NCBI RefSeq assembly: GCF_963921235.1
Contig: NC_086097.1
Location: 152,708,001-152,772,000 of the forward strand
DNA from: Mobula hypostoma
Taxonomy: Eukaryota
Length of the DNA: 64,000 nucleotides
Direction of reading: 5' to 3'
The translations under genes and the position numbers were made by a program. The notes beneath the pieces are model-generated. The model was not told the DNA's origin, ran no database searches, and was given only the letters and a program-made list of their open reading frames with translations. Shown piece by piece: positions 604 through 41,615 of this stretch (the first letter of the stretch is position 1; every line of letters starts with the position of its first letter).

Positions 604-641
604 CAGTCGACGTTTCAGGCCGAGACCCTTCGTCAGGACTA
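604..641 (-). ncRNA. Minimal type I hammerhead ribozyme motif (PLE-associated)
   Basis: Minus strand reads TAGTC CTGACGA AGGGTCTCGGCCT GAAA CG TC GACTG: complete core, stem I TAGTC/GACTG, stem II hairpin, palindromic ACGT stem III, GUC triplet. Confidence 0.8.
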
Positions 642-932
642 ACTGAAGGAAGAGTGAGTAAGGGATTTGAAAGTTGGAGGGGGAGGGGGAGATCCAAAAT
701 GATAGGAGAAGACAGGAGGGGGAGGGATGGAGCCAAGAACTGGACAGGTGATAGGCAAAAGGGATATGAGAGGATCATGGGACAGGAGGTCCGGGAAGAA
801 AGACAAGGGGGGGGGACCCAGAGGATGGGCAAGGGGTATATTCAGAGGGACAGAGGGAGAAAAAGGAGAGTGAGCGAAAGAATGTGTGTATAAAAATAAG
901 TAACAGATGGGGTACAAGGGGGAGGTGGGGCA

Positions 933-1195
933 TTAGCGGAAGTTAGAGAAGTCGATGTTCATGCCATCAGGTTGGAGGCTACCCAGACGGAATATAAGGT
1001 GTTGATCCTCCAACCTGAGTGTGGCTTCATCTTTACAGTAGAGGAGGCCGTGGATAGACCTATCAGAATGGGAATGGGATGTGGAATTAAAATGTGTGGC
1101 CACTGGGAGATCCTGCTTTCTCTGGCGGACAGAGCGTAGATGTTCAGCAAAGCGGTCTCCCAGTCTGCATCGGGTCTCGCCAATATATAAAAGGC
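933..1195 (-). pseudogene. PLE GIY-YIG endonuclease C-terminal fragment (inverted arm)
   Basis: LLYIGETRCRLGDRFAEH...HF...LGSLQPDGMNIDFSNFR; 5 amino-acid differences from the plus-strand arm. Confidence 0.85.
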
Positions 1196-1247
1196 TTACA
1201 CGGATAAGTGCTGGAGGGAGATCAGTGGGGAGGGATGGGGTGGACGA

Positions 1248-1639
1248 AGTGGTACACATGCCCTTACTCTTCCTCCCTTACCACCATTCAGGGCCCCAAA
1301 CAGTCCTTCCAGGTGAGGCAACACTTCACCTGTGAGTCGGCTGGGGTGATATACTGCGTCCGGTGCTCCCGATGTGGCCTTTTATATATTGGCGAGACCC
1401 GACGCAGACTGGGAGACCGCTTTGCTGAACATCTACGCTCTGTCCACCAGAGAAAGCAGGATCTCCCAGTGGCCACACATTTTAATTCCACATCCCATTC
1501 CCATTCTGACATGTCTATCCACAGCCTCCTCTACTGTAAAGATGAAGCCACACTCAGGTTGGAGGAACAACACCTTATATTCCGTCTGGGAAGCCTCCAA
1601 CCTGATGGCATGAACATCGACTTCTCTAACTTCCGCTAA
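1248..1639 (+). pseudogene. PLE GIY-YIG endonuclease domain fragment; RT absent
   Basis: YTCPY...FTCESAGVIYCVRCSRCGLLYIGETRRRLGDRFAEH...VATHF...EEQHLIFRLGSLQPDGMN: VIY/YIG motif with Cys/His residues typical of PLE endonucleases. Confidence 0.9.
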
Positions 1640-1932
1640 TGCCCCACCTCCCCCTCGTACCCCATCTGTTACTTATTTTTATACACACATTCTTTCTCTC
1701 ACTCTCCTTTTTCTCCCTCTGTCCCTCTGAATATACCCCTTGCCCATCCTCTGGGTCCCCCCTCCCCTTGTCTTTCTTCCTGGACCTCCTGTCCCATGAT
1801 CCTCTCGTATCCCTTTTGCCTATCACCTGTCCAGCTCCTGGCTCCACCCTTCCCCCTCCTGCCTTCTCCTATCATTTTGGATCTCCCCCTCCCCCTCCAA
1901 CTTTCAAATCCCTTACTCAGTCTTCCTTCAGT

Positions 1933-1970
1933 TAGTCCTGACGAAGGGTCTCGGCCTGAAACGTCGACTG
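1933..1970 (+). ncRNA. Minimal type I hammerhead ribozyme motif (PLE-associated)
   Basis: TAGTC(1933-37) CTGACGA(1938-44) AGGGTCTCGGCCT GAAA(1958-61) CG TC GACTG(1966-70). Predicted cleavage after C1965. Confidence 0.82.
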
Positions 1971-2529
1971 CACCTTTTCCTAGGGATGCTGCCTGGCCTG
2001 CTGCGTTCACCAGCAACTTTTACGTGTGTTGCTTGAATTTCCAGCATCTGCAGAATTCCGGTTGTTTTGTACGTAGAATTATATAATGAAAAATGGTCAA
2101 TAATCTGGTCTCCCAAGATGCCTTTAGAGAATAGTGATCATTATATGCTTGAAAATTTAGACAACGATTTAGAGTGATTTAGTTCAATCTGAAAACAGTG
2201 TCTTAAATTTAAACAAATCTATGAGGCATGAGATGACTGTTGTAGTCTGGGAATCGACATCAAAAGAAATAGCAATGGCAATGAATAAATAGCTAACATT
2301 AGAAGATTCAATATATAGTTTACAGAAGATGTACATCCCTTCATATAATGAAAAAATTGTTCACCCTTGGATAACAGAGAAGCTACAGGATGAATCACAT
2401 TAAGGAAACAAGTCTTAATACTACTAAAAGAGAAAAAAGTTGGGAAGAAAAACAAACACTATTTTCAAAGGGAACTAAGAAATTGATAAAGAAGGGGAAA
2501 GTAGAAAATAAGAGTTATCTTGTGAGAAA

Positions 2530-7064: not shown

Positions 7065-7385
7065 AGAAACAGAAAATGCTTGAAATGCTCAGTAGGTCAA
7101 GCCCACTAACTAGTCCCTTTCTGCCTACACAAGTTCATATCTCTGCATATGCTCTTAAATGCCTCTATCTTATTTGTCTCCACTACCACACCATGCAGCA
7201 CATTCCAGGCATCCACAACTTTGTAAAATAATTTTACCCCTATTAAATGCATGCTTATAGTACTAGTCTGGGAAAAAAAGATGCTGGCCGCCTACCATAT
7301 AAGTGACCCTCATAATCTTATAAACTTATTTCAGAGAAGAGAAACAGTCAATATTTCAGGTTGAAGACCCTTCACCAGAACTAGG
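7065..7385 (-). mobile_element. Old PLE 3' tail remnant with decayed hammerhead, interrupted by a CR1 fragment
   Basis: Minus strand at ~7345-7382 reads AGTT CTGGTGA AGGGTCTTCAACCT GAAA TATT GACTG; tail motif AAATGCT...CTCAGTAGGTCA at ~7075-7100. Confidence 0.5.
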
Positions 7386-9204
7386 AATGAAAGAAACTAC
7401 ATTTGTTAAGCCCTAGGAAGAGTGCAGGATGGAATGTCTCTGATAGGGTTAAAACAGAAGGGATGATGGGGGTATGAAATAAACAGAGTTAACTAGCTAA
7501 TGAGTAATTGGGAGCATTAAGTGAGTGAGGACAAAGACCAAAGAATGTAGGAGTCTCAAAATGCAGAAAATGGAGACATTTGTGGTAGGTTGAGAACGTC
7601 CTCCACTTCCAGAGGAAAAAGAAAAGCAGGAAAACAAACAGAGAAAAGATCACATATGGATGATTGATACAGACAGAGAAATTAAGTTATAGATTTTAAT
7701 ATTCAGTCCAGAAGATTGAAATGTACCCAGAAGGAAAATGAGGTGATATTCCCCAAATGTGTTGAGCCTCATCATTTTTATTATGGATTACTAGCATCTG
7801 CGGTTTAACTTTGCTGAGGCTGCAGATTCTTTTTAAGCTTCAGCAGTGCTGCAACAATAAGGTTTGGATTTCTTAGATATGAACACACATAGCATGACTC
7901 ACACCTTTCATCACAGTGTAACTTTCCAGTCACCTCTACTGCATCCTCAAAGCTGTGGCGGTGTGAACAAGGCAAACAAAGAACAATCACACTTGCAGTC
8001 CTCCAATTCTCAGGCATGAAAGTTCTAAAACATCTAATTGCATAAGGGCTCATGATGGAATTTTTTTCTGATTTGACCTGCAGAATCTGAGTTGCCAGAG
8101 CCTTGGTAACTTACCTAGCTCACCTTAAAAAAAAAGACTGGCATTACCTTAATAACTACCATTAATTAATCACTAGTTGAATCACATTACTTAAAATGTC
8201 ATTCAAATTAGTTATAATTTAAAATGGAATATATTATAAAGCTTATATAGAAAATTAATCACCAGAGATTACAGGTCAATTATGATAAATCATTTTAAAT
8301 GAATATTATATTACTTGGAACTAATGAGATTTTTAATTAAGTGATAAACAATACGAAGGGGCTTACCTTGTGTGCTCTCTGTTTGTGTGCTTTGATTCAG
8401 TTTGTGTTTTCAGTCTGGTTTTACTTCACAATACAGATACACTTCATCATATCTCATTATCTTCCCTGGTTATCATTAATGTAACATTTTATCGTGTTAG
8501 CATGTTCAGCCTTTCTATTGCATCATGTTGTATATATTCTGTCTCTGTCCTCTGCTTCTGAAGGTGCTGTTTTTCAGAGAGGAGTAAGTCCTTTTCAATA
8601 AAAGCTTGCAATAATCATGTTCTCATTTTTTTTATATTCACTTTAACCAAATGGATCGTTTTACTGGGTATTCCCTGATGGTCACTATTCAATAACTTGC
8701 CAATGTAGCGTTTTTGACTTTTTTACACTGAGAGGTAAGGGCCTATGTCACTTGGTGGATAATACTGATGAACTTATTGTCCTTCATTAAGCACAGAAAC
8801 AAGTGGGATATTTCTTTACTTCAGCAGAGATGATTTTTTTCCCCCTTTGTTCCTGATATTTGATTTGCACAGCAAACGAAAGTCAAGTCCTATGTCCAGG
8901 CTCACAGTTTAAGGAGAATAATTGACTGGATGGATTAAGTTATGCAGGATCACCAAACCTTGGTTATAAATGACATTGGATTGTGGGGTAAAACCCTCTG
9001 CCAGGTAATAGTAATATTATTCCTTGGTTGCATAGTCTAGGATTTGACTCACTGGAAGAGAGAACCTGATAACCATCACATTTGCTAGAATCATCTTGCA
9101 TCTGTATGCCTTGGAATTTTTATAGAATGAGATGTGACATTATTCCAACTTTTCATATCCCAGGAAGGCTTGACAGGGCAGATGTTGAGATGTCTTACTC
9201 ATGG

Positions 9205-18179: not shown

Positions 18180-18312
18180 ATCAAAAGAATGGTCTCGGCC
18201 TGAAGTGTCAACTGTTAATTCTTTTCCATAGATACTACCTGATCTACTGCACTCCTCCAGCATTTTGTGTGCATTGCTGTGGATTTCAATCATCCGTAGA
18301 ATCTCTTGTGTT
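18180..18312 (+). mobile_element. PLE 3' tail remnant with decayed hammerhead
   Basis: GAATGGTCTCGGCCTGAAGTGTCAACTG...TCCAGCATTTTGTGTG...GGATTTC, homologous to 1940-2060. Confidence 0.6.
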
Positions 18313-19479: not shown

Positions 19480-22400
19480 AAGAACACATTTATTATGGTG
19501 GAGATGCTGTTCATGTTGGCCTCCTCCAGTATACTGGCGTTAGTACGTCTGTCCTTCCAGTAGATCATTAAATTCTTTCATAAGATTCTTTGGAGATATT
19601 GTCCTAGGGCTTACAGGTGTCTACAAAGGTGGTCCATGATTCAGCTTCATACAGTAATTTAGGAAGGATGACTGCTTTATAGACCAAATGAGTTGGAAAT
19701 GATTTGTTTGGATCTGTAGGTCACAATCTTCAAAGACTCTTTCATTAATCTTGTCTAGGCTCCACTAACGCTAATCTGGCAGTGATTGATCCATGAGTCA
19801 ATGTCTGCTTTTGAAGAGAGAATGCTGCCAAGGTAGGGAATATGGTCTACATTTTTAAGGACAATATTGTCAACTTTTATGTAGGTCTAGATAAATGGCT
19901 GGTTGGGCAGTGTCTGATATTGGACCTGTGTCATTTTTATATTCAAAACAGGATCCAAGCCCCTTAACAAAGGCATTCAGGATACATTATAGGTCTTCTT
20001 CAGGGTATGCTGTGATGATGTTGTCATCTGCACACTGAAGCTCCATGATAGTGGTGGTGTTGACCTTGATCTTGGACTTGAGCCTGTTGAGGTTGAAAAG
20101 GCTGTTTTCCATTCCATACATGACTGGACTTACCTGTGACAGGTCTTGATCAATGAGGTGAAGGATGACAACAATAAAGATGGCAGATGGGGTGGGAACA
20201 ATGATGCAGCTCTGTTTGACCCCTGTCTTGGCAGTGAAGAGTTCTGACTCAGACCCACTATTGCTGAGTATTGTGACCGATATCCCATCATGCAATAACC
20301 TCAGTATTTATAAGTATTTGTCAGGACAGCCATGTCTTGATATTATATGCCAGACAGCTTGGTGGCCTAATGTGTCAAATGCCTTTGTCAAATCCATGAA
20401 TGCCCAGTTCAAGGGGTGCTTTTGCTCATTGCAATCTTCCCTGGAACTGGGTGTGTTGTGAAGATCATGCCTGTGGTACCTCTAGGTGGGCAGGAACTAT
20501 ACTGTAATTCAGGGAGTACTTCTTCAGATAGTGGTAGAAGTCTATTGACAAGAATACATGCCAGCACTTTGCTGTTGACAAGAAGGAGATGCCTCTGTAT
20601 TGGCACAAGCTCCCCTGTCTCAATTCTTGAATACGGTCACTATTAGAGCATTCCTGCCTGAGCTCTGAGGGCAGGTGTCCTTTTTCCCAGAGGTTTAGGA
20701 GCAGGGCATGTATGTGGTGTAGGAGTGCTGGTCCATCTTCCTGCTGGGTTCCTATCACGACCTGATGCTTTGTGCTTGTCAGGTTCCTGATGGATCATGA
20801 ACTTCTTTCATACTGGGAGGTTTCCCCCATGTTTTCTCTGACAGGTCTCTAGAGGATTTTGTTAGTAATCTTTGGTTCAGTTCTTGAAAGTGCTCCCTCC
20901 ATTGATTGTTGACATCATTTCAAACCTTTAGCAAGTTCTTCCCATCCATTAGCACAGAGGGTTTAATCCACAGTAACTTGGACCGTAGACTGTTTTAGTG
21001 GCACTGAAGAAGCCTCTCATGTTACCAGAGTCTTTCAGACTTTGGATTTCCAGGGCTTGCTAAGTCCACTAAGAGTTCTTTAGCTCCCTCACCCTGCACT
21101 GGATATTTGCCTTGGCAATGGCATAAGCTTATCTTTTGGCCTTTCTCCTGATGTCATTTGACCAGGAAATTGTTCTATCTCCATGCCATTATTGCCATGC
21201 CAATCCTGAATTTTCTGGACATACCCGAGGATTTTTTTTACAGGTATTGAAGATGATGGTTTTAAGCAGACACTAGTGTTCTTTGACATCCTCCTGATAT
21301 TCTTTTAGAAGATTTTCTCCAAATGAGGCTTGAAAGTGCTGTTGAATGGTAGTGTCAATCAGGCACTCAAATATTAGACTTGGCCTGGTCAGCTTCTTAC
21401 GGGCTCTGCCCTTTTTTTTGAGTCTGATGGACATAGTGGAGCAGATCGGCCACGGATATGTCCAGCAGTCAACTGTGCCAATCATGGTCCTTGTGATAGA
21501 CATATCACGATGGTCCCTAGCTTGGACAATGACATGGTCAATGAGATGCCATTGTTTAAATTGGAGTTGTTGCCAAGATGCAATGAGTTTGTTTTTCTAA
21601 TGGAATAGAGTATTTGTGATGATAAAATTGTGCTCGGCACATTTAGTGAGAAGTAGTACTCCACTGGAGTTGATGTTGCTAATGCCTTCCCTCTGACTCT
21701 TAATATAGGAACCCTCAGGGCAGCATACTAAGTCCCCTCCTTCATTCCCTGTATACCCATGACTGTGTTGCCACCCACAGCTCCAATCTGCTAATTAAAT
21801 TTGTTGACGACACTACATTGATTGGCCTTATCTCAAACAGTAATGAGGTGTCCTACAGGGAAGAAGTCATCTCTCTGACAGAGTGGTGTCAAAAAAAATA
21901 ACCTCAATGTTGCAAAAACAAAGGAGCTGGTTGTGGATTACAGGAGGAATGGAGAGGGGCTAACCCCTATTGACATCAATGGATCTGGGGTTGAGAGGGC
22001 AAACAGCTTTATGTTCCTCGGCACCCACATCACTGAGGATCTCACGTGGTCTGTACACACTAGCTGTGTGGTGAAAAAGTCACAATAACGCCTATTTCAC
22101 CTCAGATGGTTGAGGAAGTTTGGAGTGGACCCCCAAAGAGCATCCTGACTGGCTGCATCACTGCCTGGTATGGGAACAGTACCTCCCTTAATCACAGGAC
22201 TGGGCAGAGAGTGGTGCAGACAGCCCAGCGCATCTGTAGTTGTAAACTTCCCATGACTCAGGACATTTACAAGGACAGATGTGAAAAAAGGGCCCGTAGG
22301 ATCATTGGGGACCCAGGCCATCCCAACCACAATCTATTTCAGTTGCTACCATTTGGGAAGTGGTACCGCAGCATAAAAGCCAGGACCAACAGTTTCCGGG

Positions 22401-22720
22401 ACAGCTTCTTCCACCAGGCCATCAGACTGATGAACTCATGCTGATTTGAGTGTACTCTATATTACATTGACTATTCTATTTATTATAAATTATTATAAAT
22501 TTCTATGATTGCACATGGCACCTTTAGATGGAGACGTAACATAAAGATTTTTACTCCTCATGAATGTGAAAGATGTAAGAAATAAAGTCAATTCAATTCA
22601 GTTCAATTCTTTCCAAAGGTTGAAGGTCAAACCGACCCTGGCATTGAAGTCTCATAAGAGAATAATCTTATCCTCCTTGCTGACGCTTGGCAGTGTTGCG
22701 TCTAGGCAAGCACAAATCAA
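19480..22720 (-). mobile_element. RTE-clade LINE, degraded EN-RT, interrupted by a Rex1 copy
   Basis: Minus-strand motifs KTGVKQSCIIVPT...LFNLNRLKSK...ELQCADD and YRGISFLS; endonuclease DKII..xDFNARVG at ~22640-22680. Confidence 0.85.
21705..22610 (+). mobile_element. Rex1/Babar LINE, 5'-truncated
   Basis: SPLLHSLYTHDC, KFVDDTT, SILTGCITAWYG, FRDSFFHQAIRLMNS; (TTCAA)n tail. Confidence 0.9.
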
Positions 22721-23829
22721 TACAGGTAACAGCTCAGCGTTTTGTATTATGTTGTACTGCTTTGTACCTGTGCTCTATTTTCCTGGCTTTGTTCCACATT
22801 CCTTGGTAATCCTAGCAGATAAGATCTGTTGATTTAATATTCATACTGTCTAATGGGAGACTGTTCCACATTTTCAGCATCTACAAAGAACCTTCTATCA
22901 TAATATTCAGCAATTGCTTTGATGTTCAAGATGCATATTGGTGCTTGATAAGTTGTCTTACCTGGAAGGTGGAGTGTTTCTTAATTGAAAGGAATAAGCA
23001 AATGATTCATAATTGCATGATGGCTGCTGCTGTTTTTCTTTCCTTTCTCATTTTTAATTAAATTGAGTGTGAGCAAAGCCAATAGAAAGAAACTTCATTA
23101 CCTGTCTTTTTAATGGGTTGCCAATTAAACAACAATGAAATAACCCAACAGAGAGGTTGTTTCCTCTATAAATACTTTATTGTGCTGCTGTTGGAGCATA
23201 GTAATTGAAGAGGACTCACATTGTGCTTAATTTAATTACGTATAAGGTTGGTTTAATGAGTCTTTTTTTAAACAAATTATCATAATCCTCGGCTTTTGCT
23301 ATAAATAAAATTGATAAATCACTTTGACAGTACAATTAATTTTAAAAAGGTCTCAGAGTGTGTGAAATGAATCCAAACATTAGATTTACTCTACAATTTG
23401 AAGTTAGAAGAACTAGCTTTTGAGTTTAAATTCTGAATGCATTTTAAAAAGTGCTGGCAAAATAGTAGGCTGACTCCAGGCAAAATATGATAATTAAGCT
23501 GTAGAAGACAGTGGAGAATTTAATACTGTGATAAGCTGAGAGTCAAATTAAACATTTAGACCAAAACATTATCCATCTTAGCCACTAGTTAACTTAAAAT
23601 AATTAAACATTGAAATGCAGTTTATTTTAATTCCAAGCTTGATTGGGTTCCTGTGTCACATATTTTCAATCAGGTCCAACTAAATCACTTTTATAGTTAA
23701 TTAAGTCTGAGAAACTTATTTCTCCGTTATCTTTAGTCAACGAAAGCACAGTGAATCTAGACACCAAGCAAACCCACTGTGCAATTCTGCTTTCTGACAA
23801 TAAAGGTTCACAGCAAGATCCCATAACAC

Positions 23830-24250
23830 ATAGACCCATCCCCACATCCCAGGACCATCTCCTCAGTGAGTGCAGGTATTGATGAAAAAAACTTACCATT
23901 GCCTTTCGTGCCCTGGATAACTGAGGGTAAGGATAGTTAAAGAACAAGGCATCAAGCCTGGAGAGTTCAATTACTTACAGCAGGCAGTTGAAGGCACAGG
24001 AGACTTACCATAAGTTGTCCTTTCACAAGATATTCCAAATGCACTGAAAGCATATGAACCAACTTTAGTATCCTTTCCTAGGTCAACATGCCAAGTGTTA
24101 AGGCTCTAGTTATGCTGAGTCAACTCCAAAAGATAGGCCATATCTTTCGCATGTTCATTACCAGAATGCTGAAAGTAACAAAATCCTTAGAAGGAAAAAG
24201 CTGAGGATGCTCTCAAAAGCTCTCTGAAAAAAGTGCAACAACGTCATTCA
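23830..24250 (+). mobile_element. Old RTE LINE C-terminal remnant
   Basis: Decayed colinear RTE C-terminal motifs (LS...ID, FHK.FQ, GH..RM...R.LK, R..D.LK..LKK). Confidence 0.4.
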
Positions 24251-24670
24251 CGCTTCACAGAATTATGGAATTGTACAGCACAGAAATGGGCCCTTTTCGC
24301 CCACCTTTTCCGTAATTGGCTGGATTGATCAGACCAAAGCTACTCCAGTGTCCAGGTAATGAGAACACAAGCATAACAAGTAACCTAAAAAAACACAAAT
24401 AAATCACACAAAATACTGTATAGCAAGTCAAAAAGTTTTCCACAGAGATTCAGGATTCATGATTCTTAGTCACACTTGATTTTCACTTTTGTTGGGTAAA
24501 CTCCAAATTCTGATTCACTCATGAAGCCACCTCATGGTCCTAGGCACCAATCACAATTTCCAGCCAGTGGTTGAAGTCCAGTGAAACTGGGAAGGGTACC
24601 TCAATAAAACAACACACATCAAAGTTGCTGGTGAACGCAGCAGGCCAGGCAGCATCTCTAGGAAGAGGTA

Positions 24671-24708
24671 CAGTCGACATTTCAGGCCGAGACCCTTCGT
24701 CAGGACTA
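24671..24708 (-). ncRNA. Hammerhead ribozyme motif (stem III variant ATGT)
   Basis: Minus strand TAGTC CTGACGA AGGGTCTCGGCCT GAAA TG TC GACTG. Confidence 0.7.
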
Positions 24709-24751
24709 ACTGAAGGAAGAGATCAAATCTCTTACTAACTGTGCCTTCAGT

Positions 24752-24789
24752 TAGTCCTGACGATGGGTCTCAGCCTGAAACGTTGACTG
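24752..24789 (+). ncRNA. Hammerhead ribozyme motif (GUU triplet variant)
   Basis: TAGTC CTGACGA TGGGTCTCAGCCT GAAA CG TT GACTG. Confidence 0.65.
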
Positions 24790-24849
24790 TACCTCTTCCT
24801 AGAGATGCTGCCTGGCCTGCTGCGTTCACCAGCAAACTCTTCCTTCAGT

Positions 24850-24887
24850 TAATCCTGACGAAGGGTCTCGGCCTGAAACGTCGACTG
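24850..24887 (+). ncRNA. Hammerhead ribozyme motif (GUC triplet, one stem I mismatch)
   Basis: TAATC CTGACGA AGGGTCTCGGCCT GAAA CG TC GACTG. Confidence 0.7.
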
Positions 24888-25603
24888 TACCTCTTCCTGG
24901 AGGTGCTGCCTGGCCTGCTGCGTTCACCAGCAACTTTGAAGTGTGTTGCTTGAATTTCCAGCATCTGCAGAATTCCTCTCGTTTGCGTACCTCAATAAAT
25001 ACAGGTTTCACAAGTGTAGAGCAACCACAACATAGACATGCTCTTTGATCTTTTGTCTCAAAACTGCCTCTTGTCGAGCATATCCTGTGTTCATTAACAA
25101 TGTTCAGCATACACACTGAAATCAATTAAACATTGTAGTGATCACTCCTCCAAATAGTCCACAAACATTTTGGACACAACATTCCTTTGGACCTACAAAA
25201 GGACATTAATATTACGTATAAGCGATCAGCCCAAATCCAAAAAAGAATCGATTAAGTCAACTTGACAGATATTCACGTCTTAATGGTGCCTGAGACTAAG
25301 AAAGAATCCAGCTACAGACATTATACAGACATTAACAGTGTTTAATGTGTACAGACACTTCAAAAACATTACTCACTAGCAGACATACCAACCCGGCATG
25401 CTAAGGGCTCAGAAAGAATTAAATTGTTTTTTACCCTCCAGACATTAATCCAATATTTTACAAAATATAATATAACACATCTTCCATGTTGACTGTGATG
25501 ACTATCAATATTAACTCCATCAGTCTGCATTAGTCATGTATCTCTCTATACTTTTCCTTTATATTCATCTACATAAATGCCTTTTAAACATTGTCATTTT
25601 ATA

Positions 25604-25790
25604 GAGACAAGAGACCGCAGGAACTGGAATCTGTAGAAACGTACAAAAAAGTTGGAGATCTCAGCAGGCCAGGCAGCATTTATGGAGGAAAATTGGCAAT
25701 GAATATTTTGGGTTGAGATCCTTCATGTCCAAATGAATGGTCTCAACATTTAATGTCATCTATCTGTTTTCCTCCATAAATACTACCAAA
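25604..25790. mobile_element. Older PLE-tail-derived short foldback element
   Basis: Inverted pairs ATTTATGGAGGAAAA/TTTTCCTCCATAAAT and GTTGAGATCCTTCAT/ATGAATGGTCTCAAC; shares CAGCAGGCCAGGCAGCAT with the PLE tail. Confidence 0.6.
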
Positions 25791-26202
25791 CATAATAGTT
25801 ATTTCTGTCTCTACCACCTTGCAGCTTACTTCATATATCCATTACCATCTGTGTGGAAAAGTTAAGCTTCAAATTTAATTTAAATGTTTACACTTTTATC
25901 CGAATCCTTTTGTTCTATACTTGCACACCCTCAGGAAGAGATCTGTCTACCTATCTCAAAAGTCTCAAAATATTACAAATTATTCAGAATTAGAAAAGGG
26001 CCCTATCCCTAACTTCACTAAGCATTTTGTAGGTTTAGACAAGATATCCATCTGTGTTTTTGCTGGACAGCCAAAATACCTTAGTGCTGTTAATATAGAA
26101 ACAAAAGATTAGAGGTAATGGTGAAGGTGCCAAACGTGGACAGAATCACAGGGTCATAGAGAGGTACAGGATGGAAAGAAGCTCTTTGGCCCAACGAGTC
26201 AA

Positions 26203-26251
26203 ATAGTCATAGTTATAAGTCATACTTTATTGATCCCGGGGGAAATTGATT
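26203..26251 (-). mobile_element. ~50-bp extreme 5'-truncated Rex1/Babar 3' terminus
   Basis: Reverse complement of CAATTTCCCCCGGGATCAATAAAGTATGAC..., matching 35562-35600. Confidence 0.75.
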
Positions 26252-26990
26252 ATGTTGGCCAAGATGCCCATCCAGGCTAGTAACATTTGCCTGTGTTTGT
26301 CCAATATCCTTCTAAACCATTCATATCCTTCGTTGTCCAGCTTTCTTTTCTTGCTGAAGAGAAAGACCATACATTCTTAATAAATAGATTGGATGCAGTG
26401 TGCTTGAAAGATGGGCAGAAAGTATAGGTGTTGCTTACGACCAGATAAGAGATATAACTATTCTTGAAAGAAATCCAAATGTCTTTGTCGGAAAGATAGA
26501 GTGTAATGGAAGATAATGTGTCTGAATGTCTTTGATGGAAAAATTCATAAGGTCCACCAGGGACTGTACACAGTATATAGAAAGACTAAAGGTTTGTATA
26601 TTCATGATTTAAAGAAAATCAGCCTTTCTAAGTATCAATCTACAGAGGTAGAAATTTTGAGTTTACATTGTGAGTGCAGACAGGCCACTTAATTTAACTT
26701 CAGGATTGACTCATGAGCTCATTTGGCAAGCACATCTGTCAGTGTGAAAAGGCAAATATAACAGAACTTGCACTTATTAAGCCCCAAAAGTATCAAAATG
26801 GCTGTTATTCAGATGAAAATGGGAAAATATAAAGAAGAATAAGACATTCAACCCTGCTTTGCTTTTCAGTAAAATCATGACTAGTCTTAATTCACTGATA
26901 CTGAACCTATAATCCCTTGATTCTCTTAATATTCAAAATACTTTCAATACGCTCTGGGTGAAGTTTTTTTTTCTCATCTCACATTTGAAT

Positions 26991-27383
26991 TGTTCCAAGG
27001 ACGTGGCTGGGGACGAACCCAAGATTAGGACACAGGCACGGAGGTAGGGTCGTGAGGCATTAGTGCAGCCGCAAATGTGGAACGGGCATTCAGGAGAATC
27101 TTTACACGGAGACAAGGTTTATGGAGATTATCCAGGGAATGGTGGGGAGCTTAGAACTACCAGTCCTAAGGAATCAGGAAATGAGGTTTATACACACTAG
27201 AATAGACCAACAAACTGGAGAAGCATGACAGTGACACCAGGGTTCTTATCCTCAGTTCGCTGATGGAAAGCTGGTGTGCTGTAATTAATTAAAACTAGGA
27301 ACAATTGGAAATCAGACGAGAGGATTAAGACCTAATCAAGGAGATAATAGCAAGATGGGGCATTGCCGGACGGGACCGTAACA
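26991..27383. mobile_element. Solo LTR (393 bp)
   Basis: TGTT...AACA termini; TGAAT TSD at 26986-26990 and 27384-27388; the flanking CR1 fragment is contiguous across it. Confidence 0.8.
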
Positions 27384-27492
27384 TGAATGGCTGATGCCTT
27401 ATTTTAAGATGGGCCAAAGGACCTGTTTCCATGCTGTTTTATGTTATCACTCTGTGAGACTGTGATTCCTGGTTCTAGGAATCCTGGCTAGC

Positions 27493-27990
27493 GTAGGTTC
27501 ATAAGGTTAATTCCCAGGATGGCGGGACTGTCATATGTTGAAAGATTGGAGCGACTGGGCTTGTATACACTAGAATTTAGAAGGATAAGAGTGGATCTGA
27601 TTGAAACATATAAGATTATTAAGGGATTGGACATGCTGGAGGCAGGAAGCATGTTCCCGCTGATGGGTGAGTCCAGAACCAAAGGCCACAGTTTAAGAAT
27701 AAGGGGTAGGCCATTTAGAACGGAGTTGAGGAAAAACTTTTTCACCCAGAGAGTGGTGGATATGTGGAATGCTCTGCCCCAGAAGGCAGGGAGGCCAAGT
27801 CTCTGGATGTTTTCAAGAAAGAGATGGATAGAGCTCTTAAAGATAGCGGAATCAAAGGTTATGGGGATAAGGCAGGAAATGGATATTGATTGTGGATGAT
27901 CAGCCATGATCACAATGAATGGCAGTGCTGGCTCGAAGGGCCAAATGACCTACTCCCGCACCTATTGTCTATTGTCTATTATTGTCTATT
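27493..27990 (+). mobile_element. CR1 LINE 3' end
   Basis: GLSYVERLERLGLYTLEFRRIRVDLIETYKIIKG...RKNFFTQRVV; (CTATTGT)n tail. Confidence 0.92.
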
Positions 27991-28216
27991 GCCAGGAGAA
28001 ACAGCATTTCTGTATTTACCTTGTGGAACCTGATGAGAGTTTTGTATGTTTTATTAATAAAGGAGAAATGTGTTATTACAATTATATATTGCCTTGCTGA
28101 GGCTACATCTGGATTATTTTGTAAAATTTAGTCTGCTTGCCTACAATAGGAATGCGAGAGAAATTTAGCATACACCTTAGGATGACAGCTCTCTTATGTA
28201 AAGAAAAATGGACTGC

Positions 28217-29248
28217 TAAACTCTGATGAGCATCTCTGACTCCATCACACTGAGCATTGGATCCCCACAAGGCTGTGTGCTTAGCCCATTGCTGTTTACA
28301 CTGCTAACACATGACTGTGCAGCCAGATTCAAGGAGAACCTGATCATTAAATTTGCAGATGATACCACAGTGGTGGGGCTCATCAGCAAAAATGATGAAA
28401 CTATGTACAGGGAGGAGGTCAAACACCTAGAGAGCTGGTGCAAGGATAACAACTTGATGCTTAATGTCACCAAAACCAAGGAGATGATTGTCGATTTCAG
28501 ACGGTCTCAGCCTGAGCACACACCCCTCAGCATCAGCGGCTCCACTGTGGAGAGAGTGGAAAACATCAAGTTCCTTGGGGTGCAGATCTCGGACAATCTA
28601 ACCTGGTCCAGGAACACCACTGGGATTGTGAAACAGGCCCAGCAGAGATTGCACTTTCTGAGGAAGCTTAAACAAGCATCACTCCCCACTAACATCTTAA
28701 CTACATTCTACAGAGGCGTGGTTGAGAGTGTGCTGACCTTTTGCATCACAACCTGGTACTCCAGCTGCAGTGCTGTTGACAAAAAAGCCTTGCAGAGGGC
28801 GGTTAGGGGAGCAGAGAAGGTTATTGGGGTCTCCCTACCTTCTGTCCAAGACCTCTTTCAGAGTCGATGCCTCCAGAAGACACGGTACATCATTAAAGAC
28901 CCCTCACACCCTCTCCACGAACTGTTTGTTCTAATGCCATCAGGCAAATGTTACAGGAGCATCAAAACTAAAACCACAAAGCTATTAAACAGCTTCCTCC
29001 CACAGGCTGTCAGACTGCTAAATAGCTGATCTACCTGACTCTGCTTTGGACACTTTTAACTTACACTGGACACTTATAACTTGATTTTAACTGACATGTG
29101 GCTGTTGTGTTTTACTATTTATTGTTATGCTTATTATTTAGTGTTGCGTTTGTTATGTTATGATTGCACTGCTCCTGAGAAACGCTGTCTCATTCTGCCC
29201 TGCAGAACTGATGTACGGTTAGAATGACAATAAAGTTTTTTGAATCTT
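28217..29248 (+). mobile_element. Rex1/Babar LINE, 5'-truncated, uninterrupted 267-codon RT C-terminal frame
   Basis: ORF 28226-29029 (GSPQGCVLSPLLFTLLTHDC...KFADDTTVVGLI...SFLPQAVRLLNS); UTR ends AATAAAGTTTTTTGAATC. Confidence 0.93.
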
Positions 29249-30895: not shown

Positions 30896-33219
30896 TGCTT
30901 TCCATGTGCAACAAAAAGTCTGCTGGATGAACTCAGCAGGTCAAACTGCATGATGCACGGTTTCAGCATGAAACATCAACAGTTCATAGACTCAGAGTCT
31001 CCCACTGAGTTGCTCCAGCAGATTGTTTGTACAGCAGATTCCAGCATTTATAGTCTCCATGCCTTCCGTATGTTCTATTGTGACAGAATATGAGTATTTT
31101 CACTACTACTGATGTTAGGTTTGTTGATTTGTAATTCCCTAACTTTTCCCTTATTTATTTATGAGGTTACATTTGACTTGATTCAGAGTGGAAAGAATTT
31201 TGTAACAATACATCCACGATTTCCAGGGCCATTTTCTCTAGCACTCCTTTGTAAGTACAGAATCAAATGATTTCTATAGTTGTTCTGTCATCTCTTTGTT
31301 TCCAATTACAACTTAACCCAAGTTGGGAAGATTACAACTTTCCTAACTTTCCCTTCACACATTTATTGAAGATTATACCATCTGTTTTATGTTCCAGAAA
31401 TCAAGTTTTTATATACCATCTTCCACTCTTAATCATTTCTTTCGTCCTCCTTTGCAGTTTGGTAATCTTTTCTAACCTACAGTCCGATGGCTTTTGAATT
31501 TGAAATGTCTGTGCCTCATCGTCAGGTCTAATACATAATGAATAAGACAGTGGAGATAAACTGGATAAAACTTGAAAGTATGCAATGACTCAAACTTGTA
31601 TGGATGGGTACAAGTCATGCACAAAATCTATCCTGTCTGCTCATTAGACTATGTTCAATGACTGGCTGAAATAATTACACTCTTCATTGCCTTAAGTACA
31701 TTGCCCATTTTGTTAGTGGCTAGAAAAAGTTGAAGCTGACTTTCACTAGTAAAAACCATTCTGCACCAGGTTAATGTTTTTCTGTTGGTAGTGGCAGTTC
31801 AGCTACTGGAAGAGGCATCAAAGGACAAAAGAAAGGTAGTCCAATATTTAAGTTTTCTTTGTAAAGAAAAGATCTTTGTGGGTCCAAGAGAGGATATATT
31901 AAGTTTTGTCCCTTCGTGACTTCATGAAGGGATCAGCATTATAAAATTTAAACAAGAAATACAATAAAGATGACTTAAGTATTTTAATACTAAATCACTA
32001 AGGCACATAAAAATGACAAGAAGCTGCCAAGAACCAGCAGTCACAAGATTCGCTGTTCAACTGCTTGAGTTAATTTCTAACAGACTGTGTTAAGGATTAA
32101 GTTCTTGTTTAGTTCTGCATCACTTTCTCTCAAGTGAAACAAATCGGCCTTTTAATCTCCTGCTGACTGGAAATGTTCAGAGGCCTGCCATCTGTACTTG
32201 TAATGCAGTGTCATTTTTCACTTATCCCATCCAAAATGCCTCTAATATTGCTGAGCAAATGAAGGCCAGGTTCAGCAAAAAAACCAATGGAAGTTAATAT
32301 ATACAGATCAGTTATTAGATCTCAGTTCTACCTGGTTTTCCTCGTTGAGTATTTTTGATTTGAATGCATTTAATTCTTCATATCCTTAAATATCAATATT
32401 TTCATCACTGATACGCCAAAACTTGATGAGCTCAATGGAAATAATGTTGCAAATAGTCAAAGTGATGAATACAATATAAGGTTACAGCTCCGCAGTATAA
32501 AAGGCATTGCTTTGTTTCAACTGGCCCTATATAAGAAATGCAACCAGAAAGGAGGTATTGAAATTTGTACCTGGGAACAAAGATAAAGCTTTTGTCATTA
32601 GTTACAGGGAATTTATTCACAAGCTAATGGCAAAGATGGGGTTCAAAATCTCAAAGGTATTTGAGTGTTGCATGGAGGTGATACAGGGCAAGAAAAACGG
32701 TTTTGAGACACAAGAGACTGAAGACACTGGAATCTGGAGAAACATACAAGATGCTGGAGGACTACAGTGGATCAGAGAGCATGAACGGAGGGGAAATGGA
32801 CAGTCAGCATTTTTGGAAGGAACATTTCATCAGTCCAAATGAACTGTATTATCCCAAAATATTTAGTTTTCATTTCTCATAAAAGGAAAGGGCTAGTTCA
32901 GTCTTAAAATTAGCAAAATCACCAAAGGACAGAAGATAGAAGGGGAAAGGAAGGGAGCAAAACCTTATCTTCAAAATCAGAATCGAGTTTAATACCACCA
33001 GCATATATAGTGAAATTTGTTAACTAGAGGCAGCAGTACAATGCAATACAGGATAATCTAGAAATAATAAGTAAATCAGTTGCAGTTAAAGCTGTTCCTG
33101 AATGGCTGAGTGTGTGTCTTCAGGCTTCTGTATCTCCTTGTAAGCAATTAAGCAAAAGGGGAAAGATGAACTATTGGTAGAACTGCAAGGATAACATATA
33201 GAACATATTGGGCTAGAAC

Positions 33220-35600
33220 ACTGCCCAACTTCACGCAGTATGTGAGCTGTACAACCAGAGGGGAGAGGACTCTGGATTTAATGTACGCTAACGTTAAGGA
33301 TGCATACAGCTCCTCTCCCCTCCCCCAACTGGGAAGGTCAGATCACAACCTGGTGCATCTAAAACCCTGCTACATGCCTCTGATGAAGAGTAAACGTGCA
33401 ACCTCGAGGACAGTGAGAAAATGGTCGGAGGAGGTTTATGAGGCGCTCCAGGGTTGTTTTGAGGTGACAGACTGGCAGGCACTCTGTGAACCACATGGAG
33501 AGGATATTGATGGGCTCACAGAGTGCACCACTGATTACATTAACTTCTGTGTGGACTGCAATGTTCCGACAAGAACTGTCCTTTGTTATTCAAATAACAA
33601 GCCATGGGTGACAAAGGACATTAAGGACATCCTGAATGCTAAAAAGAGGGTGTTTAGAGATGGAAAAAGGGAGGAGCTGAGGGCAATACAGAGGGACCTG
33701 AAAGCCAGGATCAGGGAGGCTAAAGACAGGTACAGGAGGAAGCTTGAGTGGAAACTCCAGCAGAACAACATGAGAGTGGTCTGGAGGGGGATGAGGACCA
33801 TCACTGGGTTCCGGCAAACTTGCAACAGAGGAGCGGAAGGCAGGTTGGACAGGGCCAATGAACTTAACCTGTTCTTTAACAGAATTGACATTGTGGCCCC
33901 TGCCCATCCCACACACGAGCCAACTGTTGTCGGCCCCCAGCCAACACATATTCCACTCTCCCCTCCTACCCCTCCTCACAGTCCCCCACCCTGCTCTCAT
34001 GACTATACCCCTTCCCCACACGAAACCACCACGGTCGGCTTCATAGCTGAACAGGTGAGAAGACAGCTGAAACGTCTCAACCCAAGCAAGGCTGCAGGAC
34101 CGGATGGTGTCAGTACCAGGGTATTCAAAACCTGTGCCCCTCAGCTATGTGGAGTACTTCGCCATGTATTCAACCTGAGCCTGAGGCTCCGGAGGGTTCC
34201 TGTGCTGGGGAAGACGTCCTACCTTGTCCCTGTGCCGAAGACGCCACGCCCCAGCGGCCTCAATGAGTACAGACAGTTGGCATTGACCTCCCACATCATG
34301 AAGACCCTGGAGAGACTTGTTCTGGAGTTGCTCTGGCCTATGGTCAGGCCAAACTTAGATCCCCTACAGTTCGCCTGCCAGCTCCGACTAGGAGTTGAGG
34401 ATGCCATCGTCTACCTGCTGAACCGTGTCTATGCCCACCTGGACAAGCCAGTGAGCACTGTGAGGGTCATGTTTTTTGACTTCTCCAGTGCATTCAACAC
34501 CATCCGCCCTGCTCTGCTGCGGGAGAAGCTGACAGCGATGCAGGTGGATACTTTCCTGGTATCATGGATTCTTGATTACCTGACTGGCAGACCACAGTAT
34601 GTGTGCTTGCAACACTGTGTGTCCGACAGACTGATCAGCAGCACTAGGGCTCCACAGGGGACTGTCTTGTCTCTCTTTCTCTTCACCATTTACACCTCGG
34701 ACTTCAATTACTGCACAGAGTCTTGTCTTCTTCAGAAGTTCTCTGATGACTCTGCCATAGTTGGATGCATCAGCAAGGAAGATGAGGCTGAGTACAGGGC
34801 TACGGTAGGAAACTTTGTCACATGGTGTGAGCAGAATTATCTGCAGCTTAATGTGAAAAAAACTAAGGAGCTGGTGGTAGACCTGAGGAGAGCCAATTTA
34901 CTGGTGACCCCTGTTTCCATCCAAAGGGTCAGTGTGGACATGGTGGAGGATTACAAATACCTGGGGGTACGAATTGACAATAAACTGGACCGGTCAAAGA
35001 ATACTGAGGATGTCTACAAGAAGGGTCAGAGCCGTCTCTATTTCCTGAGGAGACTGAGGTCCTTTAACATCTGTTGGACAATGCTGAGGGTGTTCTACGA
35101 GTCTGTGGTGGCCAGTACGATCATGTTTGCTGTTGTGTGCTGGGGCAGCAGGCTAAGGGTAGCAGACACCAACAGAATCAACAAACTCATCCATAAGGCC
35201 AGTGATGTTGTGGGGATGGAACTGGACACTCTGACGGTGGTGTCTGAAAAGAGGATGCTGTCCAAGTTGCAAGCCATCTTGGACAATGTCTCCCATCCAC
35301 TACATAATGTACTGGGTGGGCACAGGAGTACATTCAGCCAGAGACTCATTCCACCGAGATGCAACACTGAGCGTCATAGGAAGTCATTCCTGCCTGTGGC
35401 CATCAAACTTTACAACTCCTCCCTTGGAGGGTCAGACACCCTGAGCCAATAGGCTGATCCTGGACTTATTTCATAATTTACTGGCATAATTTACATACTA
35501 CTATTTAACTATTTATGGTTCTATTACTATTTATTATTTATGGTGCAACTGTAACGAAAACCAATTTCCCCCGGGATCAATAAAGTATGACCATGACTAT
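33220..35600 (+). mobile_element. Rex1/Babar LINE, 5'-truncated within the endonuclease, with 3' UTR
   Basis: Contains the 736-aa ORF; 3' end CCCCCGGGATCAATAAAGTATGACCATGACTAT. Confidence 0.95.
33242..35452 (+). CDS. Rex1/Babar pol ORF (APE C-terminus and reverse transcriptase), open but 5'-incomplete
   Basis: TRGERTLDL, LGRSDHNLV, KAAGPDGV, MFFDFSSAFNTI, APQGTVLS, KFSDD, YKYLG, SFLPVAIKLYN. The annotated start is not a real ATG. Confidence 0.85.
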   Translation: MSCTTRGERTLDLMYANVKDAYSSSPLPQLGRSDHNLVHLKPCYMPLMKSKRATSRTVRKWSEEVYEALQGCFEVTDWQALCEPHGEDIDGLTECTTDYINFCVDCNVPTRTVLCYSNNKPWVTKDIKDILNAKKRVFRDGKREELRAIQRDLKARIREAKDRYRRKLEWKLQQNNMRVVWRGMRTITGFRQTCNRGAEGRLDRANELNLFFNRIDIVAPAHPTHEPTVVGPQPTHIPLSPPTPPHSPPPCSHDYTPSPHETTTVGFIAEQVRRQLKRLNPSKAAGPDGVSTRVFKTCAPQLCGVLRHVFNLSLRLRRVPVLGKTSYLVPVPKTPRPSGLNEYRQLALTSHIMKTLERLVLELLWPMVRPNLDPLQFACQLRLGVEDAIVYLLNRVYAHLDKPVSTVRVMFFDFSSAFNTIRPALLREKLTAMQVDTFLVSWILDYLTGRPQYVCLQHCVSDRLISSTRAPQGTVLSLFLFTIYTSDFNYCTESCLLQKFSDDSAIVGCISKEDEAEYRATVGNFVTWCEQNYLQLNVKKTKELVVDLRRANLLVTPVSIQRVSVDMVEDYKYLGVRIDNKLDRSKNTEDVYKKGQSRLYFLRRLRSFNICWTMLRVFYESVVASTIMFAVVCWGSRLRVADTNRINKLIHKASDVVGMELDTLTVVSEKRMLSKLQAILDNVSHPLHNVLGGHRSTFSQRLIPPRCNTERHRKSFLPVAIKLYNSSLGGSDTLSQ

Positions 35601-37221: not shown

Positions 37222-40185
37222 AGACCATAAGACCATAAGACAAAGGAGCAGAAGTAGGCCATTCGGCCCATCGAGCCTCCTCCGCCATTTTATCATGAGC
37301 TGATCCATTTTATCCTATTTAGTCCCACTGCCCCGCCTTCTCACCATAACCTTTGATGCCCTGGCTCCTCAGATACCTATCAATCTCTGCCTTAAGTACA
37401 CCCAATGACTTGGCCTCCACTGCTGCCCATGGCAACAAATTCCATAAATTCACCACCCTCTGGCTAAAAAAATTTCTTCGCATTTCTGTTCTGAATTCAT
37501 GCCCTCTCGTACTAGACTCCCTCATCATGGGAAACAACTTTGCCACATCCACTCTGTCCATGCCTTTTAACATTCGAAATGTTTCTATGAGGTCTCCCCT
37601 CATTCTTCTAAACTCCAAGGAATACAGTCCAAGAGCAGACAAACGTTCCTCATATGTTAACCCTCTCATTCCCGGAATCATTCTCGTGAATCTTCTCTGT
37701 ACCCTCTCCAACATCAGCACATCCTTTCTTAAATAAGGAGACCAAAACTGCCCACAGTACTCCAAGTGAGGTCTCACCTGCGCCTTATAGAGCCTCAACA
37801 TCACATCCCTGCTCCTATACTCTATTCTTCTAGAAATGAATGCCAACATTGCATTCACCTTCTTCACTACTGACTCAACCTGGAGGTTAACTTTAAGGGA
37901 ATCCTGTACGAGGACTCCCAAGTCCCGTTGCATCTCAGAACTTTGAATTCTTTCCCCATTTAAATAATAGTCTGCCCATTTATTTTTTCTGCCAAAGTAC
38001 ACAACCATACACTTTCCAACATTGTACTTCATTTGCCACTTCTCTGCCCATTCTTCCAATCTATCCAAGTCTCTCTGCAGACACTCCGTTTCCTCAGCAC
38101 TACCGGCCCCTCCACCTATCTTCGTATCGTCAGCAAACTTAGCCACAAAGCCATCTATTCCATAATCCAGATCGTTGATGTACAATGTAAAAAGAAGCGG
38201 CCCCAACACTGATCCCTGTGGAAAACCACTGGTAACCGGCAGCTAACCAGAATAGGATCCCTTTATTCCCACTCTCTGTTTCCTGCCAATCAGCCAACGC
38301 TCTTTCCACGTATGTAACTTTCCTGTAATTCCATGGGCTCTTATCTTGTTAAGTAGCCTCATGTGTGGCACCTTGTCAAAGGCCTTCTGAAAATCCAAAT
38401 ATACAACATCCACTGCATCTCCCTTGTCTAGCCTACTGGTAATTTCCTCAAAAAATTGTAATAGGTTTGTCAGGCAGGATTTTCCTTTAAGGAATCCATT
38501 CTAAGTTCTGCCTATCTTGTCATATGCCTCCAGGTACTCTGTAATCTCATCCTTGACAATCGACTCCAACACTTCCCAACCACCGACATCAAGCTAACAG
38601 GTCTATAATTTCCTTTTTGCTTCCTTGTCCCCTTATTAAATAGCGGAGTGACATTTGCAATCTTCCAGTCTTCCGGAACCATGCCAGAATCTATCGACTT
38701 TTGAAAGATCATTGCTAATGCCTCCGCAATCTCCACAGCTACTTCCTTCAGAACACGAGGGTGCATTCCATCTGGTCCAGGAGATTTATCGACCTTTAGC
38801 CTATTCAGCTTCCTGAGTACTTTCTCTGTCGTAATTGTGACTGCGCACACTTCTCTTCCCTGCCACCCTTGAGTGTCCGGTATCCTGCTGTCTTCCTCAG
38901 TGAAGACTGATGCAAAATACTTGTTCAGTTCCTCTGCCATCTCCTCATCTCCCATTACAATTTCTCCAGTATCATTTTCTATCGGTCCTATATCTACTCT
39001 CACCTGCCTTTTACTCTTTATATACTTGAAAAAGCTTTTAGTATCCTCTTTGATATTATTTGCTAGTTTCCTTTCATAGTTAATCTTTTCTCTCTTAATG
39101 ACCTTCTTGGTTTCCTTTTGTAAGGTTTTAAAAACTTCCCAATCCTCTGTCTTCCCACTAATTTTTGCTTCCTTGTATGCCCTCTCCTTTGCTTTAACTT
39201 TGGCTTTGACTTCTCTTGTCAACCATGGTTGCATCCTTTTTCCACTCGAAAATTTCTTCTTTTTTGGAATATACCTGTCTTGCACATTCCTCATTTTTCG
39301 CATAAACTCCAGCCACTGCTGCTCTGCCGTCTTTCCCGCCAGTGTCTCTTTCCAGTCAACTTTGGCCAGTTCCTCTCTCATGCCACTGTAATTTCCTTTA
39401 CTCCACTGAAACACTGACACATCAGATTTCGGCTTCTCTTTTTCTAATTTCACAGTTAACTCAATCATGTTATGATCACTGCCTCCTAAGGGTTCCTTCA
39501 CCTCAATCTCTCTAATCACCTCCGGTTCATTACACAATACCCAATCCAGTACAGCCGATCCCCTAGTGGGCTCAACAACAAGCTGTTCTAAAAAGCCATC
39601 TTGCAGACATTCTACAAATTCTCTCTCTTGAGATCCAGTGATGACCTGATTTTTCTAATCTACTCGTATGTTAAAATCTCCCACAATTATCATGACACTG
39701 CCCTTCTGACAAGCCTTTTCTATTTTCAGTTGTAATTTGTAGTCCACATCCCTCCAGCTGTTTGGAGGCCTATAAATAACTGCCATCAGGGTCCTTTTAC
39801 CCCTGCTATTCCTTAGCTCAACCCATAAAGATTCTGCACCTTCCGATCATATATCACCTCTTTCTAATGATTTAATATCATTTCTTACCAATAAAGCCAC
39901 GCCTCCCCCTCTGCCTACCTTCCTATCCTTCCGATACACCGTGTATCCTTGGACGTTCAGCTCCCAGAGACATGCATCCTTTAGCCACGTCTCAGTGATG
40001 GCCACAATATCATACCTGCCAAACTGTAGCTGTACAACAAGATCATCCACCTTATTCCTTATGCTGCGTGCATTTAAGTACAACACCTTAAGACCAGTAT
40101 TTGATACTTTTTGCTTTGATTTCACTGCAACTTTATTGCACTTCAACTCATCCCAATGGCTACACATTTGCCCCATCACCTGTCC
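37222..40185 (-). mobile_element. CR1 (HER1-like) LINE, near-complete ORF2 plus 3' UTR, disrupted
   Basis: ORFs 39847-40257 (LYLNARSIRNK, ITETWL), 38512-39537 (GGSDHN, KSPGPDGMHPRVLKE) and 37319-38209 (KFADDTK, RPHLEYC); (ATGGTCTT)n tail; a few stops and frameshifts. Confidence 0.95.
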
Positions 40186-40189
40186 AGTT

Positions 40190-41615
40190 CCAAAGTAGAC
40201 AGGATGAAGGGCACTGCTCCATTTCCTGAAGCCAATGGCCAGCTCTTTTGTTGACATTGAGGAAAGATTATTGTTTTGACATTATTTTACTGAGCTCTCT
40301 TTTTCCTTCCTGTACTCTGACTTATTGTTATTTGAGGTACAGCTTACCACGGTGTTATCAACTGCAAACCTGTAGATGGCATTAGAGCAGAATCTGGCCA
40401 CACAGCTGCGAGTGTACAGAAAGTAGAGGTGGGGGCTGAGGACACAACCTTGTGCAGCACCAGTGTTTAGAAAAATCATGGTGATGATGTTGCTGCCTAT
40501 CCTTACTGATTGGATTCAGTTGGTCAGGGAATTGAGAATTCAGTTACAGAGGTAGGCATGAATACCATTGTTTGGTGATAAATTATTGTTGAAGGCAGAG
40601 CTGTGGTCAAGGAACAATACCCTGATGTACCTTTACTATACTGATGTTCTTGAGATGAGTGTAGGGCCAGACCTGTTTCAGTACAGGTCCGCAATCCCTT
40701 ATCCAAAATCCTTGGGGCCAGTTGCATTTCGCAATTCAGAATTTTTCGGATTTCAGACTCCCCCCCTGCCCCCCGCCGATACCAAAAAACACATATGCTC
40801 AAGTCTCTTATTTAACCTGACTCAGTGCGGTGGATTTTAGGTCCCGGCGGCGCACCAAACCTACGCAGATCCTCCCTTATAATTTAAATCATCTCTGGAT
40901 TACTTATAATACCTAATACAATGTAAATACTATGTAAATAGTTGTTATGCTGTATTGTTTAGGGAATAATGACAAGAAGAAATTTTATTTCCAACAGAAA
41001 TATTCAATAAAACATAAAAATATGCAGCTTCAAACAAACTGAATCAAACACATGGTAAATGACTTGTTGGAATAAATGTAGAACGTCACTCTCACTGTCA
41101 CTTTAAAACTTCAGTAACTTGTCTTTCTGTTTATTTAAATCATATACAGTGGTAGTTCCAACACTATTTTCTTCAGTAAGACGCTGCACAGACACACCAC
41201 GATCAAGCTTCCGCAATAACTCCACTTTCTGCGTTATTGATAATGATAGATGCTTCCTTCTCTTTTTCTCATTGTTACCCATAGGGGTATCTGCAGCTCT
41301 TCTTGACATTTTCACAGTTAAATTAAACACACAATCAACAGTGAACACAAAATATTAGCGAACAGCAAATGCACGTGTAACCAGTACGAGCGCTGAGCCA
41401 CAACTGACGTCTGGCGGCCTCTGCTAGTGCTGCCACGTCACACCTGAGTGACGGCAGCTGTTGGCAAAAAAAATTTCAGTTTTCGGAGCTTTTTGGATTT
41501 CAGAATTTCGGATAAAGGAATGTGCACCTGTAATAGACAATTTGCAATAGGTCGAAGTTGTCTGGAAGTTTGGAATTAATGCAGGCCATGTCATGACCAG
41601 CCTCATGAAGCATTT
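40190..41615 (-). mobile_element. Rex1/Babar RT fragment split by a Tigger element
   Basis: NTGAAQGCVLSPHLYFLYT...RFAVDNTVV; sequence continues after 41532. Confidence 0.75.
40684..41530 (-). mobile_element. Tigger/pogo DNA transposon, internally deleted
   Basis: TIRs CAGGTCCGCAATCCCTTATCCAAAAT and, reverse-complemented, CAGGTGCACATTCCTTTATCCGAAAT; TA TSDs; ORF 41103-41348 is a CENP-B/psq-type HTH (KRRKHLSLSITQKVELL...VGTTTVYDLNKQKDKL). Confidence 0.9.

Follow-up and report, generated by a model that had tools for sequence, protein, structure and literature searches.

The DNA between 24610 and 24986 of this 64-kb window (the whole stretch of DNA analysed) is a real feature of a familiar type, namely a truncated insertion of a Penelope-like element (PLE) that includes a short partial tandem. 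We consider it probable that it is a single, extremely 5'-truncated insertion of an endonuclease-bearing PLE that is now decaying. The insert contains one minus-strand unit (E1) and two plus-strand units (E2 and E3), and its layout matches the published pattern of PLE insertions. Its three hammerheads probably stem from the PLE habit of inserting inverted and tandem end-repeats, and the insert is probably not a working circular-RNA switch, the role suggested for it in the initial annotation.

Layout of the insertion and its PLE family

The insert is 377-378 bp long, where 375 bp had been given before, and is flanked by a perfect TSD, GTACCTCAATAAA, identical at 13 of 13 positions. This 13-bp sequence occurs twice in the whole window, and the chance of a copy falling within 10 nt of the insert end is about 6e-7. 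The repeat is 92-97% identical to copies at 541-670 and 1904-2067, which belong to a longer insertion of the same family, and no coding sequence remains in it; the earlier claims of a TSD-bounded insertion made only of PLE terminal repeat are borne out. So is the placement of the two plus-strand hammerheads in tandem 98 nt apart: E2 and E3 form a repeat with a period of 98, 2.0 copies and 91% matches. The E1 arm is complementary to both of them, at 95% over 115 nt for E3 and 94% over 97 nt for E2. A 5-bp hairpin (24818-24834) has its base at the end of the first tandem unit, and the template jump may have landed at this structure. On the plus strand, 24733-24750 resembles a splice acceptor (TACTAAC, pyrimidines, CAG) that ends immediately 5' of hammerhead stem I, and loose contig ends suggest that TACTAA is the subfamily form; a PLE intron ends at helix I in Drosophila virilis (PMC4209133).

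The longer insertion, at 543-2064, ties the repeat to its parent. Its inverted and direct arms are 96.7% identical over 657 nt, and the direct-arm frame matches the Pfam GIY-YIG domain (PF01541) with an E-value of 3.9e-5, a match that clears the curated cut-off; this copy lacks the RT part. The family may be Neptune-like. The GIY-YIG frame carries two cysteines between the GIY and YIG motifs and two histidines downstream, a set of residues described as universal to PLE endonucleases (PMC8557442). The inverted arm ends at the identical family position in the two insertions, and a tail is found at one end only, on the direct arm (38 nt in the insert at 24610-24986 and 31-33 nt in the longer copy, about 31-38 nt across both). 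Both also have a short TSD, of 13 bp and 12-14 bp, respectively. Some 60 purine-rich bases (1196-1255) separate the two arms of the longer relic; they match nothing else in the window and are either filler or sequence from further upstream in the element. Related pLTRs have also left older fragments, diverged further and 70-90% identical, at 7336-7395, 18187-18302, 25653-25679 and 61955-61993.

Table 1. Parts of the insert and of the related longer insertion, in window coordinates.
Feature	Position	Strand	Remarks
Longer insertion of the same PLE family	543-2064	+	inverted arm 543-1195; direct arm, with GIY-YIG C-terminal frame to 1639
Hammerhead of the longer insertion, intact-looking	604-641	-	
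Hammerhead of the longer insertion, intact-looking	1933-1970	+	
Left TSD	24596-24608	+	13 bp; from sequence identity and window copy count
E1, inverted tail-less pseudo-LTR arm	24610-24721	-	ends at the family position shared with the inverted arm at 543
Minimal type I hammerhead 1	24671-24708	-	stem III palindrome ACGT changed to ATGT (CpG decay)
Head-to-head junction	24717-24733	.	6-7-bp hairpin with 3-nt loop; from sequence and fold
E2, first direct unit	24723-24834	+	14 nt of upstream family sequence plus the 98-nt unit
Minimal hammerhead 2	24752-24789	+	cut site GUU (24784); bulged A changed to U; stem II G changed to A
Novel tandem junction	24831-24841	+	AACT microhomology plus one extra A; upstream family form from loose contig ends
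E3, second direct unit	24835-24948	+	extends to the family point where the inverted arm stops
Minimal hammerhead 3	24850-24887	+	GUC at 24882; A.C mismatch in stem I (24852)
PLE tail	24949-24986	+	38 nt, direct side only
Right TSD	24987-24999	+	13 bp

PLE insertions are reported to contain partial tandems, to begin at the 5' end with an inverted copy that is itself 5'-truncated, and to carry a tail of 30-40 bp on one side (PMC8557442). In the portions of the literature drawn on here, EN+ PLE insertions (PMC8557442, PMC3846280, PMC11167929) share with the insert the TSD, a tail-less inverted 5' arm, a tailed direct arm, a hairpin at the inverted junction, a hammerhead inside the pLTR and a GIY-YIG parent. 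Unlike the insertions described there, the insert has lost its coding sequence entirely, and its tandem unit is only 98 nt long. Minimal hammerheads occur in pLTRs, where dual motifs on opposite strands lie 100-700 bp apart (PMC4209133, Cervera and De la Pena 2014).

Among 281 stop-to-stop frames of at least 62 aa in the window, 11 have Pfam hits, all of transposon type. None of the frames of at least 62 aa within 21900-28200 has a Pfam hit, and the insert may still sit in an intron of a gene with shorter exons. Transposon relics lie at 28220-29029 (+), 33170-35452 (+), 37319-40281 (-) and 41106-41354 (-); among them are relics of LINE type that have RVT_1 hits, one of which keeps an open frame of 760 aa, and a CENP-B N-terminal fragment that we take to be Tigger/pogo-like. 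Further along are a 21-bp minisatellite (54810-54984) and an 80-bp tandem duplication with 98% identity (62915-63075).

Structure and decay of the hammerhead motifs

Cores of the form CUGAcGA...GAAA are found at 24703-24676 on the minus strand and at 24757-24784 and 24855-24882 on the plus strand, and adding a 5-bp stem I to each gives exactly the coordinates originally proposed for one minus and two plus hammerheads (Table 1). Each has the features of a minimal type I PLE hammerhead: the core CUGAnGA/GAAA, a bulged base, and stems I and II. The palindrome at 15.2-16.2 is present in the two plus motifs, confirming the ACGT stem III described there, and is lost in the minus motif. That description was accurate in its positions and missed the ATGT of the minus motif, the GUU of motif 2 and the A.C mismatch of motif 3. 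As in the metazoan PLE minimal hammerheads of PMC4209133, stem I is short, an extra base lies between 9 and 10.1, and the 15.2-16.2 palindrome comes without a loop 3. Compared with the hammerheads presented in that paper, all five copies in the window have G.U instead of G-C at 10.1-11.1, and each of the three motifs in the insert has private changes.

A loose core pattern has eight matches in the window, five of which belong to this PLE family; the other three have no stem I adjoining the core. A scan of the whole window with Rfam models, suggested earlier as a check, gave five hits with E up to 1, none of them a hammerhead family, and the motifs are presumably too reduced for those models. 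One of the hits, to mir-2_2 at 24685-24776, scores 35 bits against a cut-off of 94; we reject this identity, as the hit reflects the inverted repeat.

We scored private changes over 96 nt against the majority of the five family copies, three of which come from the insert itself, so that the majority is biased at one position. On this scale E1 has one private change, E2 five and E3 three, with none common to E2 and E3. Three of the nine changes are CpG transitions. Five of the nine fall inside the 36-nt motif, where 3.4 would be expected, and there is thus no depletion and no sign that the motifs have been protected. None hits the 11 invariant core positions, which is within chance (0.33). GUC and GUA are the fastest cleavage triplets, and GUU is listed as cleavable (PMC3138052). 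Because the invariant core is untouched and GUU is still a cleavable triplet, the three motifs appear weakened by decay, not provably dead.

Origin of the tandem and the inverted arm

We propose a scheme for the formation of the insert in which the order of priming and jumping is inferred. The PLE protein would nick the two target strands 13 bp apart, and two cDNAs would be primed, one from the tail-proximal and one from the tail-distal start site. Both cDNAs would halt just past the hammerhead and be joined head to head through the short microhomology of the hairpin, and the tailed cDNA would jump once, at AACT, back to a point 51 nt downstream of the cut site to give the 98-nt tandem. The tandem would thereby have been written at insertion or soon after. 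Read-through RNA from such a locus would fold back as a long hairpin in which one plus core is held (as is, in minus-strand RNA, the minus core), and the locus would most likely give no hammerhead product. In vitro, PLE protein cleaves and extends both target strands, independently of hammerhead cleavage, and two start sites bound the tail (PMC11167929). Head-to-head pairs have been attributed to self-priming instead (PMC3846280), which offers an alternative source for the inversion.

Because E2 and E3 share no private change, the duplication appears to be as old as the insertion, or to have followed it soon after. A tandem that post-dates the insertion, produced by slippage or repair at AACT in an ordinary two-arm inverted insert, would leave a likewise inert relic, and the microhomology and the long hairpin-forming arms could be expected to favour such an event. 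Against this, E2 and E3 have no private change in common and differ from one another at 8 of 96 nt, compared with 6 between E2 and E1 and 4 between E3 and E1, so that any slippage duplication would have to have been early; we regard this explanation as very unlikely. We also rejected copying from a 98-nt circle, because the insert includes sequence beyond the 98-nt unit, namely 14 nt upstream (24723-24736), a run-on of about 54 nt with the tail (24933-24986) and the inverted arm; moreover, the novel junction (24835) lies 51 nt from the cut site. Judged from these junctions, a template jump at the AACT microhomology would explain the tandem better than circle copying does.

These observations also bear on whether the insert should be called retrozyme-like, as the initial annotation had it. 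A 2026 preprint (Li, Clavereau and Pollet, 10.64898/2026.07.22.740005) describes families of 51-972 bp derived from PLE pLTRs, with hits in the one cartilaginous fish sampled, and its working definition requires a complete hammerhead motif in each of two or more tandem units in succession. We reran two parts of its screen, TRF and a motif MFE below -5 kcal/mol: with the preprint's settings TRF reports a period of 98 and 1.9 copies, and the motifs fold at -9.0 and -8.5 kcal/mol. Since the tandem passes both parts, such a pipeline could file it as a dimer; an origin as a retrozyme circle is not supported. Rolling reverse transcription would give an insert made up of head-to-tail copies of the circle, and here the upstream 14 nt, the run-on with the tail and the inverted arm all lie outside the unit. 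The 2020 definition (Cervera and de la Pena, PMC7229834), with a unit of about 170-400 nt and a canonical hammerhead, likewise differs from the 98 nt and minimal motif seen here. Like the non-LTR retrozymes described in the portions of PMC7229834 and the 2026 preprint drawn on here, the insert is non-coding and PLE-related, with a tandem pair of type I hammerheads and a TSD of more than 4 bp. Unlike them, it has minimal instead of canonical motifs, only two units of 98 nt, and a PLE tail and inverted arm outside the unit. A literature search found no description of this particular PLE family; the supplements of the 2026 preprint may list it, and this null carries no claim of absence from print or repeat databases.

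A further explanation is that the insert is one copy of a dispersed mini-element, in which a master locus with the 98-nt tandem supplies a linear RNA mobilised in trans by PLE protein and the junction recurs throughout the genome. pLTRs can mobilise cargo in trans, and the rerun screen parts as well as the short pLTR-derived families of the preprint and its positive cartilaginous fish speak for this. Against it, the tandem occurs at only one of the loci that hold the window's five hammerhead copies, and none of the 15 joints listed from public sequencing runs goes back by 98, while 14 skip E2; we consider it unlikely.

Those joints come from an alignment of four public runs to 24300-25300. In run X1, summed contig depth, which is not the same as copy number, is 0.9-9.1 million across the element, compared with 12.8 in the left flank, and the repeat plainly belongs to a very large family. 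Among the 15 joints listed (817 in total), the 14 that skip E2 link the inverted arm to the direct unit or tail, and therefore head-to-head pairs recur elsewhere, a reading made with caution, as the short sides of the joints are 18-29 letters, below the caution line of 30. Seven of the 15 joints listed, from other loci, gather at the core's 5' edge (24702-24709 to 24854-24858), which may be a preferred stop point or simply the limit to which another subfamily aligns. Contigs from a second organism (run X5) enter the element by 24-25 letters from each flank, which suggests that the insertion is common to both, at a reach below the 31-letter bridging rule. The X5 flanks differ from the window by 11 letters and two gaps in 333, and by three letters in 338. 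Runs X9 and X12, guessed to be RNA, cover the repeat and almost none of the flanks, which says nothing on expression. Metagenome contigs have no match to the tandem junction, an uninformative result, since the family core pattern also has no match there or in viral contigs; these collections thus lack the host.

Cleavage, circularisation and what the insert represents

PLE hammerheads reportedly cleave as dimers, according to a 2017 paper, and the initial annotation built on such action a model in which a plus transcript folds into a double hammerhead and releases a 98-nt RNA that circularises under the control of the inverted arm. The structure can be drawn, with all forced pairs but one able to form; the folding model does not discriminate dimer self-cleavage. 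Forcing the double hammerhead is predicted to cost 31.5 kcal/mol without the arm and 88.5 with it. We do not count the arm-free figure as evidence, since a control tandem of majority letters costs 27.0, nearly as much, and the folding model therefore cannot judge the arm-free tandem. The core needed for the cut at 24784 carries both GUU and the stem I mismatch, and the 98-nt circle is not unusually structured (z of -0.76 against 300 shuffles).

The arm can indeed pair with either tandem unit, as had been proposed; the regulatory part of that proposal fares less well. The arm is transcribed first and, in the folding model, pairs with E2 at 91% until E3 is made and then with E3 at 94%. One plus core is thus arm-paired at 91-94% at every modelled transcript length, with 72% and 20% at the crossover; in minus-strand RNA, the partner of E1 is the complement of E2. 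Because one core is always held, the arm is predicted to act as a lock, not a switch. For an RNA to be free of the arm, its start site would need to fall in a stretch of about 30 nt (24722-24751).

For related motifs the base rates of cleavage are low. Dimer action is what minimal hammerheads are built for, and dimeric and trimeric constructs cleaved somewhat, if poorly, in vitro (PMC4209133); a PLE hammerhead was protein-assisted in vitro (PMC11167929), and such help could rescue weak motifs. Eight of nine predicted Xenopus dimers gave no cleavage product in the 2026 preprint (10.64898/2026.07.22.740005), and 98 nt is shorter than the 170-400 nt of the animal retrozyme RNAs characterised in PMC7229834. 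On balance, we hold circle release under arm control to be extremely unlikely. The back-junction reads proposed as a check in RNA-seq data are not diagnostic: when the 31 nt flanking 24882/24785 on each side are compared with the family copy at 543-654, just 2 of the 62 positions are different, so that a back-junction read could not be assigned to this locus.

The insert could also be seen as a retrozyme born in one step from the end of a PLE, with a single RT template jump writing a tandem of minimal hammerheads 98 nt apart, an idea that we find distinctly improbable. If the junction proved to be multicopy, or if an arm-free transcript cleaved with PLE protein, the insert would be a proto-retrozyme whose parent is still active in the same genome. 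It would then be a concrete intermediate on the way from PLE pseudo-LTRs to tandem retrozymes, and the origin of retrozymes from PLEs could be tested directly; the 2026 preprint argues the link between the two from homology, trees and co-occurrence (10.64898/2026.07.22.740005). As a truncated PLE insertion, the 377-bp insert is a compact example of known PLE products, in which the tail rule can be seen side by side with the inverted junction and what is probably a template jump.
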